Assembly: GCA_951406725.2 (NCBI GenBank)
Contig: OX597830.1
Location: forward strand, 36,208,001 to 36,272,000
Direction of reading: 5' to 3'
DNA length: 64,000 nt
Origin: Octopus vulgaris
Taxonomy: Eukaryota
A model generated the notes under the pieces. That model had not been told where the DNA came from. It did no database searches and saw only the letters and a program-made list of their open reading frames with translations. This document shows, one piece after another, positions 24,228 through 35,468 of the stretch. A program made the position numbers and the translations under genes. Positions within the stretch are counted from its first letter, which is position 1, and the number at the start of each line of letters is the position of its first letter.

Positions 24228-24556
24228 ATGGCGTAGTTGTTAAGAGCGCTTACTACTAACTCTAAGACTTCGATTCCAGGCAGTGACATTAATAATAATA
24301 ATAATAATAATAATAATAATAATAATAATAATAATAATAATAATAATAATAATAATAATAATAATAATAATAATAATAATAATAATAATAATAATAATAA
24401 TGATAATGATGACATCGAAAGATACCTTAGGAATGAGAACCCAGGTTCGAAATTTCTCCAAGGTACCTGATGAAGGCTGGAGGGTATATCAGCCGAAACG
24501 TTGTGCTAACAACAAGCAAAATGAGGACAAATATCCGTCAAATGTAAATAATGAAA
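24228..24556 (+). mobile_element. SINE family C copy 3
   Basis: A box tggcgtagttg, B-box remnant ttcgattcc, (AAT)n, hammerhead tail. Confidence 0.85.
24462..24507 (+). ncRNA. minimal type I hammerhead ribozyme motif
   Basis: Stem I GGUAC/GUGCU, CUGAUGA-A, stem II GGCUG/CAGCC, GAAACGUU. Confidence 0.8.
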
Positions 24557-24574
24557 ATAATATATACTTAATAT

Positions 24575-25012
24575 CGGTCTCAAATTTTGGTACAATGCCA
24601 GCTATTTCGAGGAGGGGTTTAGTCGATGACATTGATCCCAGAGTTCAACTGCTACTTATTTTATCGATCCCGAAAAGACGAAAGGCAAAGTCGACTTTGG
24701 CAGCGTTTGAACTCAAAACGTAGAGTAGGAAAAATAACGCTAAGCATTTCATCCAACATATTAACGATTGAACCAGCGTGATAATAGTAAAATAATGGTT
24801 TCCAGTTTTAGCACAAGGCCATCAATTTGGTTAAAATGCTAAGTCGGTAACATTGATCCTAGTACTCAATTGGTACTTCTTTCATTGCTCTTTGAAAAAG
24901 AACAAAGGCAAAGTCGATCGCAGCGAAATTTGAACTCAGATCGTGGAAAGACAGAAGAAATTACTCTAAGCATTTTGTGCGACGCGCTAACCGTTCTGCC
25001 AGCTCACTTGCT
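24575..25012 (-). mobile_element. two tandem SINE family B copies (about 24575-24780 and 24796-25012)
   Basis: Each has tail Z, aaggcaaagtcga core and tttgaactca B box on the minus strand. Confidence 0.75.
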
Positions 25013-25531
25013 GTCACAGTACAGTTGTAGCACTAACGACAATAACAATAACAACAACACAAGCAAACATTACAAATAATAATAACAACAACAAAAAGCC
25101 ACAATCATAAGAACAACAGCAACACCATTAGTAAGCCAATAACCAGCCAACCACCAACAATAAATCTGGATATATTGATGGATTTCAGCAAATTTGGTTT
25201 CTCCTTCCAACATTGTGAAGTGTCTTTTTTCTTATCCCCATGTATTACTCTTGGCTGTATAATGATTACGGTATTGGTGGTGGTGGTGATGGTTGTGGTG
25301 GTGGTGGTGGCGGCGGCGGGGTGGTGGTGATGGTTGTGATGATGGTGGTTAAAATCATTGCAGTGTTCTTGATCTCTCTATCTCTCTCTCTCTCTCTTTC
25401 TCTCAAGATTGCGCGCACGACACAAACATACACACTCACACACATACACATATGTATATATACACATATGTATATATTTTTACATGGAAATGGTTGACAG
25501 TTACGTCGAAGTTTCGGCTGTGTAACCTTCG

Positions 25532-25860
25532 TAGATAGATAGATAGATAGATAGATAGATAGATAGATAGATAGATAGATAGATACAGACAGACAGACAG
25601 ACAGACAGACAGATAGATAGATAGATAGATAGATAGATAGATAGATAGATAGATAGATAGACAGACAGACAGACAGACAGACAGATAGATAGATAGATAG
25701 ATAGATAGATAGATAGATAGATAGATACAGACAGACAGACAGACAGATAGATAGATAGATAGATAGATAGACAGACAGACAGACAGACAGATAGATAGAT
25801 AGATAGATAGATAGATAGATAGATAGATAGATAGATGGATACATACATACATACATACAT
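25532..25860. repeat. compound (GATA)n/(GACA)n array with higher-order repetition
   Basis: Alternating GATA and GACA blocks. Confidence 0.95.
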
Positions 25861-26845
25861 ATATACATACACACATATACAAAAACGTGAACACACACAT
25901 ACACTCGTGCTTATTCACTTACACGCATATACATTCATACAGATAGACGGATATATATATATATATATAGAGAGAGAGAGAGAGAAAGAGGAAGATTGGT
26001 ATATACATACATATTATAGGTACATACGTAATGTATATATACATATGTGCATACAACATATATGAGAGAAGAAGGATAAAGGAAAGCAAAGAAGAGAAAA
26101 AAAAGAAAACAGAATTTAAAAAAAGGAGAATTAATGGTTAAGAAAAATGAAAGAAAGCTGGGGAAGAGAGGCTGATGGAGGTTTGAATTAAAGTATTTCT
26201 TTCTTCAGATAATCGTCTAATCGATCAAGTTAAAATTGTTCTAACGAATTGGGGCGGGGTAGAAGATAAAAAGCAAAGGAGAAAGGAGGAGAAAAAAAAA
26301 CACACCGGCAACGTTTGAATCGAACTTAAATACGTTGGTGACAGCTTTGAGACGAGAAATTGTATGTGTGTGAGAAAATCTGAAGTGAAGAAATTTGTAA
26401 AAGAAACCATTGAAATTAGAGGATTTATAGAAAGACATCAGCGCCGAAGTACTTATTCGTTAGGGACAAAAAAACAACAAAAAAAACAGGTAGTGGGGAT
26501 GGATGACAGAAGAGAAAACAGAAGGTAATGCATATATATATATATATATATATATATATATATATATATATATATATATATATATGTATGTATTATATAT
26601 ATATATATATATATATATATATATATATATATATATATATATATATATATTATATTATATATAATACATACGCACACACACACACATACACATATATAAT
26701 TTCTTTCTGAAGGAAAATCGATTGCTGGATAAGAAATGACGAAAATTTGCAATTAAACTATTATTAATAATAATAATAACAATAATAATAATAATAATAA
26801 TAGTAATAGTAGTAGTAGTAGTAGTAGTAGTAGTAGTAGTAATGA

Positions 26846-27305
26846 TTGTTTCGAAGTATGGCACAAGGCTGGTAATTTTGAGAGGAGGGGGAGCTTGTTG
26901 ATTACATCGACCTCAGTAATTGGCTGGTATTTTATGTTGTCAACCCCGAAAAAATTTAATGGGAAGGTTAACCTCGGTGGGATTTGAGTTTAACATATAT
27001 GGAGCCGAAATAGATGCCATTAAACATTTAATCCGACGCGCTGACGATTTTACCATCTCGCCGTCATAATAATAATGATAATAATAATGATAATAATTCT
27101 TTCTACAATTCGCACATGGCCTGAAATTTTGCGACAGGAGGCAGGTCGATTACATCGACCCCCGTAGTCTACTGGTACCTATTTTATTGACCCCGAAAAG
27201 ATGGAAATATAGTCAACCTCGGCTGGATTTGAGCTCAGAATGCAAAGATGGAAATACCGCTAAGCATTTTACCCGGTGTGCTAATGTTCCGCCAGCTCGC
27301 CGCCT
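26846..27305 (-). mobile_element. two tandem SINE family B copies (about 26846-27066 and 27096-27305)
   Basis: Family B core and head on the minus strand, separated by (AAT)n. Confidence 0.75.
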
Positions 27306-27370
27306 CACCACCTTTATAATAATAATAATAATAATAATAATAATAATAATAATAATAATAATAATAATAG

Positions 27371-27810
27371 TATTTATTGATTGACACGAGTATTCCTTGC
27401 GATCACAATATAGCGGCAAAAGAATTTGACAAGATCAATAAATATAAAGACTTGCTAATAGAAATTGGAAGAATGTGGCATCACAAGGCGACTACAGTAC
27501 CAGTGATCGTAGGATATCTGGGAATGATAAAAAAAAATGGTACTGAAACCGATTTGAAAATGATACCAGGCTTACCATCCCTACAGGAAGTGCAAAAAAT
27601 CGTGTTAAGTGGAACGATTCATGTACTGAGAAGAGTATTATCGCTGTGAAAATAACATCCATTCATGAATTTATTTATTTAAATACATAATTTACCTGTG
27701 AATTTGCGTGTGTAATCTGGGAATGCATTCAATGAACTTCTCTGCCCTAGTTATACGGAAAGCACTCGGCAAGAAACGGAAGCAAATTTGAAGAAAGAAG
27801 GAAAAAAAAC
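27371..27810 (+). mobile_element. Dong/R4-clade non-LTR retrotransposon, 5'-truncated 3' fragment
   Basis: Translation YLLIDTSIPCDHNIAAKEFDKINKYKDLLIEIGRMW...VPVIVGYLG...LQEVQKIVLSGTIHVLRRVLSL* matches the C-terminal restriction-like endonuclease region of R4/Dong; flanked by (AAT)n on both sides, the known Dong target. Confidence 0.85.
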
Positions 27811-33628: not shown

Positions 33629-33647
33629 TATGTGGATGTATGTGTGA

Positions 33648-33750
33648 CTCTCCATGTAATACCTGTAAATGTCTCTACGTCTCTCCATGTAATACCTGTA
33701 ACTGTCTCTACGTCTCTCCATGTAATACCTGTAAATGTCTCTACGTCTCT
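33648..33750. repeat. 3 x 33-bp minisatellite
   Basis: ctctccatgtaatacctgtaaatgtctctacgt at 33648, 33681 and 33714. Confidence 0.95.
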
Positions 33751-33861
33751 ACAAGTTTGTGTGTGTGTGTGTGTGTGTGTGTGTGTGTGTGTGTGTGTGT
33801 GTGTGTGTTTCTTGAGATTTATTTAAATTCCTTTTTGTAGAACTCAAGCTGGCCACTAACA

Positions 33862-34070
33862 TAATCCTTTCTGTTATAATAACATTTTGTGGGAGGTGGA
33901 CAGTCCATCCTATCGACCCCAGTACTCAACTGGTACTTAATTTATCGACCCCAAAAGGATGAAAGGTAAAGTCGACCTGCGCGGAATTTGAACTGAGAAC
34001 GTAACGACCGGTCGAAATACCGCTGAGCATTTCGTCCAGGGGGCTAAAGATTCTGCCAGCTCGCCACCTT
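33862..34070 (-). mobile_element. SINE family B with ~19-bp TSD
   Basis: agctggccactaa(c/t)ataat on both sides; empty site visible in the paralogous segment at about 32641-32660. Confidence 0.85.
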
Positions 34071-34336
34071 AGCTGGCCACTAATATAATGACAACGCTTC
34101 TTTGTTAGAGTGAATACAGTTCCAAGATTTGCGAATACATCAGCGCTATTTAATGAAATAACTGACACAGATCAATTTTGAATATGGATTTATGTCGGTT
34201 TACACGTTAGCTAGCTCCTGTTTTAATATGTGGTTGTATGTGTGATGGAAGTGGCTTTCAAATAAGACCTGTAAATGTCTCTATAACTCTACCAGTTTGT
34301 GTGTGAGTGAGATTACCTTTTTGTTAAATATATATT

Positions 34337-34937
34337 ATCTTTTATTTGTCTCAGTCATTGGACTGCGGCCATGCTGATGTAAGACGTTGAACAGTTTAGT
34401 AGTTGAACAAATCGAGTCCAGGACTTATCTTTTAAAGTTTGTTATTTATTTTATCGGTTACGTTTGTCGAACAGCTGTGTTACGGAGTCGTAACAATAGC
34501 CGACCTGGCTGTAGCTGTCAAGTTGTGTGGCTGGGACAAGCACAAAGACACACATATATACATGTATGTATATATATATATATATATATATATATATATA
34601 TATATATATATATATATATGCATGCGCGCGTGTGCATGTTTGCGTATATATATATATATATATATATATATATATATAGATAGATAGATAGATAGATAGA
34701 TAGATAGATAGATAGATAGATAGATAGATAGATAGATAGATAGATAGATAGATAGATAGATATATGACGTGCTTCCATACGGTTTCCGGCCAGCAAATCA
34801 AAATCAAATCCGCACGCACAAGGATTTTATCAGTCGGCGCTACAGTAGAAGACACTTGCCCAAGTTGCCACACTGCAGGATGGAACTCGAAACCATGTGA
34901 TTGGGAAACAAATTCCTTACCGCACATCCACGCCTGC
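34337..34937 (-). mobile_element. SINE family A with expanded internal (TA)n/(GATA)n
   Basis: tcagtcattggactgcggccatgctg tail; agtagaagacacttgcccaag...ccatgtgattggg head. Confidence 0.75.
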
Positions 34938-35132
34938 AACAATGCATAAATTATGTATAAATCTATAATTGTATGATGTACGCAAACGGAATGACGCTTG
35001 TATGTTAATTGTAGGAAATTCGTATGCTGAACATTCATAATGTTTCGCATAACTTCACTGTGACACTGATTGATTGTATTCGAATAATGACATTTATTTC
35101 ACTCCGGTCTTTATTAGTGAGTTTCAGTATTT

Positions 35133-35468
35133 ATGGCATAGTGCTTAATGGCGCGGGCTACTAACCCCAAGATTCCGAGTTTGATTCTAGGCAGTAACCT
35201 AAATAATGATGTTAATAATAATAATAATAATAATAATAATAATAATAATAATAATAATAATAATAATAATAATAATAATAATAATAATAATACTGATAAT
35301 AACAATAATAATAATAATAACATTGAAAAATACCTTCGGAATGAGAACCCAGGTTCGAAATTTCCCCAAGACACCTGATGAAGGATGGAGGGTATATCAT
35401 CCGAAACATTGTGTTAACGAGAAACAAAATGAGGACAAATATACGTCAATTGTAAATAATGTAAATAA
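35133..35468 (+). mobile_element. SINE family C copy 4, full head
   Basis: atggcatagtgcttaatggcgcgggctactaaccccaagattccgagtttgattc tRNA-like head; (AAT)n; possible TSD tttcag. Confidence 0.85.
35370..35415 (+). ncRNA. minimal type I hammerhead ribozyme motif
   Basis: Stem I GACAC/GUGUU, CUGAUGA-A, stem II GGAUG/CAUCC (compensatory change), GAAACAUU. Confidence 0.7.

Follow-up and report, generated by a model that had tools for sequence, protein, structure and literature searches.

Hammerhead motifs in the tail of a probable tRNA-headed, Penelope-copied retroposon of the octopus

We analysed a 64,000-nucleotide stretch of Octopus vulgaris DNA (GenBank assembly GCA_951406725.2, contig OX597830.1, positions 36,208,001 to 36,272,000 of the forward strand), called the window below and numbered from its first letter, which is repeat-rich animal DNA with no recognisable gene and which holds four copies of a hammerhead ribozyme motif. 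These four hammerheads are probably the tails of a high-copy, non-coding octopus retroposon with a tRNA-derived head and a tail derived from a Penelope-like element (PLE), copied by PLE enzymes, in which the double base changes seen in the stems are probably not markers of major subfamilies. The element is most likely a short interspersed element (SINE) moved by a PLE.

A composite element with a hammerhead tail

A 150-nt tail segment is present four times in the 64-kb window, each copy showing 4 to 11 differences from the four-copy consensus, and a type I hammerhead lies inside each of the four tails. No fifth tail copy was found in the window, where an unfiltered model search added only one chance-level match of 18.9 bits. 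The initial annotation had placed the motifs in the interval 24462..35415, outside which the hammerheads of copies 1 (20240-20285) and 2 (23963-24008) lie. The tail is the 3′ part of a host element of ~340 nt that begins with a tRNA-like head carrying A and B boxes and continues through an (AAT)n linker. Head, linker and tail were found together in all four copies, which come from three separate insertion units, and the head is absent elsewhere in the window, occurring only with the four tails. The parts of the units are as follows, the linkers being assigned from the sequence.

19949..19958, + strand: left target-site duplication of the copy 1 unit, 10 bp (90 of 20000 shuffles share a 10-mer)
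19961..19991, - strand: inverted 31-nt 3′ extension at the 5′ end of copy 1 (23/23 identical to the copy 2 extension)
19986..20050, + strand: tRNA-like head of copy 1, with a slight 5′ truncation and an intact B box
20051..20189, + strand: linker of copy 1, (ATT)n and then (AAT)n with (AAC)n
20190..20338, + strand: conserved tail of copy 1
20240..20285, + strand: type I minimal hammerhead of copy 1
20240-44/20281-85, + strand: stem I of the copy 1 hammerhead, with the core at 20245-51 and an extra A at 20252
20253-57/20268-72, + strand: stem II of the copy 1 hammerhead, with GAAA at 20273-76 and the palindrome ACGU at 20276-79
After U20280, + strand: predicted cut of the copy 1 hammerhead
20337..20346, + strand: right target-site duplication of the copy 1 unit
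23886..23917, - strand: 3′ extension of copy 2, which pairs with the AAGAUGAGGA tract of the tail
23910..24058, - strand: tail of copy 2, the inverted partner of copy 3
23963..24008, - strand: hammerhead of copy 2, with a broken core (G5 to U) and a stem II mismatch
24059..24178, - strand: (AAT)n linker of copy 2
24179..24216, - strand: head of copy 2, 5′-truncated at the anticodon arm and head to head with copy 3
24222..24290, + strand: tRNA-like head of copy 3, with an A box and a 6-nt deletion at the B box
24291..24411, + strand: (AAT)n linker of copy 3
24412..24561, + strand: tail of copy 3
24462..24507, + strand: hammerhead of copy 3, with changes at 24463, 24464 and 24506
35132..35200, + strand: tRNA-like head of copy 4 (full-length RF00005 alignment, 13.7 bits, E 1.6)
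35201..35319, + strand: (AAT)n linker of copy 4
35320..35469, + strand: tail of copy 4
35370..35415, + strand: hammerhead of copy 4, with the stem II change at 35385/35400 and the palindrome lost by G35408A

In the head consensus the A and B boxes stand 45 nt apart, an arrangement matched by 2 of 20000 shuffles. None of the four copies contains a run of four T, which is compatible with the transcription by RNA polymerase III that the sequence predicts. Copies 3 and 4 begin within ~7 nt of the first base of the tRNA, and the DNA upstream of them is unrelated. The linker of copy 1 itself holds a fold-back within the microsatellite, where (ATT)n repeats give way to (AAT)n repeats (20056-20173).

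Copies beyond the window were viewed in two ways. Allele shares were taken from contigs of 4 of 24 listed public runs (X1, X5, X11 and X15), aligned to copy 1; a small share in an insect-metagenome run was set aside. The second view came from spurious open reading frames (ORFs) that run through the tail; 143 of 151 proteins yielded 153 units, of which 26 were assigned to family A, the family of the window, 111 to a sister family B and 16 to neither. Each read-out protein stands for a cluster, and diverged copies are over-represented among them. Three DNA runs (organisms A, C and D) contain at least 19,122, at least 19,765 and at least 18,243 family contigs, and X15, a putative RNA run, at least 2,683; summed contig depth, a measure ill-suited to such use, bounds the copy number only between ~4 thousand and 120 thousand. 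The 3′ end of the tail is sharp in the contigs of the public runs. Upstream of the tail, the 3′ half of the head is readable in two of the eight outside family A read-outs with room for it (p<0.001 and 0.01), and one loose end in X15 bears the start of the head. In family B read-outs, the 3′ half of the head was found in 0 of 147 at a score of at least 30. The named homologous read-outs come from Octopus bimaculoides (with the extension) and O. sinensis. In the latter, at LOC115224785 (P0003, P0004 and P0006), the annotation gives the tail as residues 1-36 of cysteine-rich membrane protein isoforms, which is possibly an exonisation or a gene-model artefact.

Stem changes, subfamilies and selection on the fold

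The hammerhead core (CUGANGA...GAAA...UH) is intact in copies 1, 3 and 4, and copy 2 has G5 changed to U. All four copies have an unpaired base between positions 9 and 10.1, a G10.1-C11.1 pair and a helix I of 4-5 bp, and the palindrome at 15.2-16.2 (ACGU) is kept in copies 1-3 and gone in copy 4. This fits the min-HHR consensus of Cervera and de la Pena 2014 (PMC4209133; here and below, papers are cited from their accessible text), who describe PLE minimal hammerheads in which a palindrome replaces helix III and activity is weak and confined to the dimer. The octopus tail thus appears to be of PLE type, an assignment by class only. As expected for a motif without helix III, an Rfam search of copy 1 returned no hammerhead match, and the whole-window Rfam matches listed are microsatellite fold-backs. 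The folding energies of the four hammerheads are unremarkable (z -0.65 to -1.21).

The base changes reported by the initial annotation are all present in the sequence. In copy 3, stem I has an A-U pair changed to G-C (24463/24506) and a C-G pair changed to U-G (24464); copy 4 has a C-G to A-U change in stem II (35385/35400); and copy 2 combines a G-U to A-U change in stem I with the core CUUAUGA and one stem II mismatch. Copy 4 also carries G35408A, a previously overlooked CpG change that destroys the helix III palindrome ACGU. Across the four copies 39 of 40 stem cells are paired and 2 of 10 pairs are altered on both sides, a combination of pairing and double changes that column shuffling attains in 32 of 500 trials. 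We simulated neutral decay with the observed 6, 4, 9 and 11 substitutions per 150 nt (copies 1-4, respectively), and at least two Watson-Crick double changes among the 10 pairs arose with P = 0.0006 to 0.0018 under three mutation models, values that are uncorrected for the pattern having been picked after the sequence was seen. The earlier view that two double changes are hard to obtain by neutral decay is accordingly upheld, for a post hoc pattern, to the extent that they exceed independent decay.

The data nevertheless do not support the double changes as markers of sizeable subfamilies, as had been proposed for GGAUG/CAUCC and GGUAC/GUGCU. In copy 1 numbering, the defining alleles are C20255A and G20270T for copy 4 and A20241G for copy 3. 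Each lies below 1% in X15, where the listed rows fully cover the change-kind counts. In X1, X5 and X11 none is among the 40 variant rows listed of 82, each of which reaches at least 2.18% in some run. The remaining 42 rows in these three runs probably lie between 1 and ~2%, and since they fall beyond those listed they leave room for a subfamily of up to ~2%. Among the 26 family A read-outs, the copy 3 haplotype does not occur at the protein level, and one has the residue expected from the 3′ change of copy 4, the partner change being silent in that frame. The double changes probably stem from minor lineages (~2% or less) or from single copies. Copies 3 and 4 also have G20298A in common (24520 and 35428), which is found at 0.5-2.6% in the runs and could reflect chance or a minor shared lineage.

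Two other accounts of the double changes can be weighed against these data. The initial annotation held that both were fixed in source elements selected for the fold and that they mark real, if small, subfamilies, which we now regard as unlikely. Independent decay is indeed improbable (P about 0.001-0.002), and such subfamilies exist: in the largest metagenome family, the pair equivalent to that of copy 4 is C-G in 19, U-G in 15 and U-A in 11 of 45. Exactly one C>A and one G>T place at 1% or more lie beyond the listed rows in X11, the other alleles of copy 3, T20284C and C20242T, reach 2-5% in X5 and X11 (a range shared by ordinary transitions), and at thousands of copies or more a subfamily of 1-2% would still comprise many copies. 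However, two of the four local copies would each need a rare lineage, with defining alleles below 1% in X15 and absent from the listed rows of 2.2% or more, and with a copy 3 haplotype in none of the 26 read-outs. The pair changed in copy 3 is moreover unpaired in related families, with A-A in an older subgroup (9 of 26 have D at codon 32) and A-G in family B (81 of 111 have T/G), so that it would be weakly constrained and need no compensation. We give still less credence to hairpin repair, the alternative named in the initial annotation, in which template switching along stems I and II in the DNA would have produced both changes once the copies were inserted. Template switching has been published for RNA stems (PMC8794818), and stem II of copy 4 does end as a perfect 5-bp inverted repeat, but that paper itself requires six bases or more, and 850 of 3000 random single substitutions reach the 5-nt tract length of copy 4, which makes this copy indistinguishable from chance. 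Repair from the stem I partner would also give full complementarity, whereas copy 3 is left with a T-G mismatch in its DNA (U-G in the RNA). For copy 3, we propose instead one 4-nt fold-back (AC to GT) plus one ordinary T to C transition; the AC to GT change creates the reverse complement of the adjacent four bases, yielding an 8-bp palindrome.

The evidence for selection on the fold comes from elsewhere. At the level of the class, metagenome contigs yielded at least 122 stretches, of which 121 loci were analysed, and 98 distinct contexts were grouped by our own clustering into 22 families, with relatedness uncorrected. Across these families the free pairs of both stems covary, with 13-17 Watson-Crick of 22 versus 5-7 in shuffles; covariation in Penelope minimal hammerheads has already been published. 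One locus (L043) has an 823-aa ORF with reverse transcriptase (RT) and GIY-YIG domains that ends 67 nt before a motif of the same class, and in 42 of the 121 loci listed, mostly of one family, PLE ORF homology ends at most 1 kb upstream. Exact hammerhead patterns with free stems gave no loci in viral and metagenome contigs; a looser family pattern gave no viral loci and one eukaryote-like contig (L122), and a family B protein query gave no viral loci. That contig, filed as a bacterial metagenome-assembled genome, has introns and microsatellites and bears a head-to-head inverted pair of minimal hammerheads (L122:3950-4115).

Within the octopus family, CpG decay affects core G12 (2-9%) and helix III (4-12%) in the four runs. 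In a tally that leaves out CpG sites and the private bases of copy 1, two variants alone reach 5% or more in each of the four runs: T>A at N7 (9-13%) and G20261A in loop II (7-23%). N7 is the sole free position of the core, and both common non-CpG variants thus sit at free positions. Between families, pair 4 of stem II is U-A in family A (13 of 16 readable units) and C-G or U-G in family B (74 of 104), which reads as one compensatory split. Within family B, covariation of this pair does not reach significance (p 0.49), its signal being blurred by CpG decay, and a pooled value of p 0.017 was not counted as a test since it reflects the one split between families. Taken together, these patterns support a fold kept by selection in source elements, for which the two double changes are not the evidence. 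Of the earlier proposal of source subfamilies selected for the RNA fold, the selection is thus retained, through the free-position variants and the cross-family covariation, and the sizeable subfamilies are not.

Family B (P0008, P0110, P0158 and others) agrees with family A in its hammerhead and 3′ end but not in its 5′ part. At N7 it reads A, pair 4 of its stem II is C-G, and its tandem units are spaced by 43 codons. Family B predominates among the best 120 of 2955 matches and looks like a PLE pseudo-long terminal repeat (pseudo-LTR) or a retrozyme.

Insertion scars and the proposed route of copying

The arrangement of the units points to mobilisation by a PLE. Copy 2 is an inverted, 5′-truncated partner that abuts copy 3 head to head, and outside the window the read-out P0019 likewise has an inverted piece ahead of a direct copy. 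A 31-nt extension is attached 3′ of copy 2, recurs in inverted orientation at the 5′ end of copy 1 and is absent in copy 4; these two are its only matches in the window, where none would be expected. The copy 1 unit, extension included, is enclosed by a 10-bp duplication. An inverted truncated copy and a tail of 30-40 bp at either end are features of PLE insertion according to Craig et al. 2021 (PMC8557442). The optional extension is also complementary to the AAGAUGAGGA tract of the tail (23886-23945, - strand), with which it would form a 3′ hairpin of 10-12 bp in the RNA (z -1.9). All four copies retain ~58 nt past the predicted cut.

In the mechanism we propose, the tRNA-derived head would supply an internal RNA polymerase III promoter, and the transcript would pass through the (AAT)n linker into a tail of 150-180 nt captured from a PLE pseudo-LTR. 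Minimal hammerheads cut only as dimers, in which two motifs pair via ACGU, and PLE enzymes leave scars of the type described here. Since the minimal hammerhead lacks its own helix III, a single transcript would stay uncut and be inserted whole, and we infer that uncut monomers are the inserted form because the four copies keep the ~58 nt past the predicted cut. An autonomous PLE would then provide the RT and GIY-YIG endonuclease that copy the transcript into the genome in trans, a step suggested by the insertion scars of PLE type. Selection would hold the fold only in a few source elements, with inserted copies decaying neutrally.

Several observations weigh against this scheme. The other two units are flanked by matches of 6-7 bp at chance level, so that a clear duplication is seen in one of three units. 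The Rfam tRNA model spans the copy 4 head end to end at a score (13.7 bits) below the cut-off and gives no match on the copy 3 head, ARAGORN finds no tRNA in the element, and six of the eight outside read-outs with room have no head. As for the autonomous partner, the window contains no ORF or ORF fragment with RT and GIY-YIG domains, tail words are missing from the Naiad/Hydra consensus file of Craig et al. 2021 (PMC8557442) as far as that file was accessible, and Hydra-1_Obim was rejected as a candidate partner, as it carries a different hammerhead. The free-position argument for selection involves two variants only (chance ~0.06), of which N7 T>A could come from copying of the next GAA, and the allele shares, drawn from partial contig sets, differ by a factor of two to three from run to run.

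Other identities of the element fare less well. It is improbable that the element is the 5′-truncated 3′ end of a pseudo-LTR from an autonomous or polymerase II-driven PLE, joined to a microsatellite and a segment that resembles a tRNA by chance, although all of the insertion scars are of PLE type, the tRNA match is weak, and the sister family joins the tail to a different 5′ part and forms 43-codon tandems. Random truncation of a 3-kb element would not give starts that cluster, and copies 3 and 4 both start near the first base of the tRNA (among three units only). An ordinary tRNA SINE mobilised by a long interspersed element (LINE), with the PLE fragment as passive cargo, is very improbable: octopus genomes are rich in tRNA SINEs, but this element has no poly(A) or LINE-type repeat tail, its 3′ end is sharp at a PLE-type terminus, and both the inverted partner and the extension at either end are typical of PLEs. 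We advance tentatively the fuller proposal of an undescribed, very abundant SINE family with a PLE partner in which the fold is selected even though the inserted RNAs are uncut. If this were true, the fold may act on the PLE reverse transcriptase as a recognition or dimer-gated signal, and with thousands of dated copies the role of the PLE hammerhead would be open to direct test.

The window also contains unrelated repeats. At 33222-33834, an inverted repeat of ~120 bp (90% alike) surrounds an inner inverted pair (~33345-33630) and resembles the ends of a miniature inverted-repeat transposable element, and at 61019-61618 another SINE-like repeat forms an inverted pair (184 bp at 91%) whose flanks are inverted too. 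A second, older SINE-like family with more than 12 copies in the window (sites at 2707-3161, 16604-17312, 20595-21418, 24569-25008, 27080-28189, 33884-34073 and 36301-36437) does not share the head of the hammerhead element.

Comparison with known systems

The hammerhead itself adds a member to a known class and shows nothing unusual in its covariation; the architecture of the element is more interesting. SINEs borrow the enzymes of LINEs, and tRNA-derived SINEs of octopus were reportedly described by Ohshima and Okada in 1994; an element combining a tRNA head with Penelope scars would place PLEs among the partners of SINEs. The tRNA-Core and tRNA-Deu SINEs of octopus (PMC8967140, PMC13282606) likewise have a tRNA-like head, the same host group and a high copy number, and a hammerhead tail is unmentioned in their accessible descriptions. 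A tRNA-headed, PLE-tailed octopus element is undescribed in the literature searched; Repbase and Dfam lie outside that search and may already catalogue it.

Compared with the hammerheads of PLE pseudo-LTRs (PMC4209133), the octopus motif sits behind a tRNA-like head and a microsatellite linker, with no ORF. The non-autonomous PLEs, MRC1 and its relatives in Chlamydomonas (Craig et al. 2021) and the short Penelope elements of Heliconius (PMC6685494), share the 3′ end and insertion of PLEs, and unlike for the octopus element, no tRNA-derived promoter is reported for them in the accessible text. The function of the hammerhead in endonuclease-bearing PLEs is called unclear by Craig et al. 2021 (PMC8557442). 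A non-coding element of 340 nt that has shed everything else but keeps the motif in at least thousands of copies, across several octopus-related genomes, would provide a small substrate for asking what that role is.

Sm-alpha (PMC6765202, PMC2770079) is similar in being a tRNA-related polymerase III element with a hammerhead and a very high copy number. Its hammerheads are described as canonical and belong to tandem repeats that cleavage sets free, and the accessible text names no partner for it, whereas the octopus element has a minimal hammerhead, dispersed or inverted head-first copies and PLE insertion scars. The animal non-LTR retrozymes (PMC7229834; bioRxiv 10.64898/2026.07.22.740005) are also non-coding with a type I hammerhead, and an origin from PLE pseudo-LTRs and the use of PLE enzymes have been proposed for them. 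In contrast to the octopus element, for which we found no direct tandem in the window and no family A member among 41 proteins with at least two units, they are head-to-tail tandems, and the accessible main text of bioRxiv 10.64898/2026.07.22.740005 mentions neither a tRNA nor a promoter. Family B, with its 43-codon tandems, fits the non-LTR retrozymes better than family A does. A tRNA-headed element with PLE scars would thereby link Sm-alpha-type SINEs, retrozymes and the pseudo-LTRs of PLEs.

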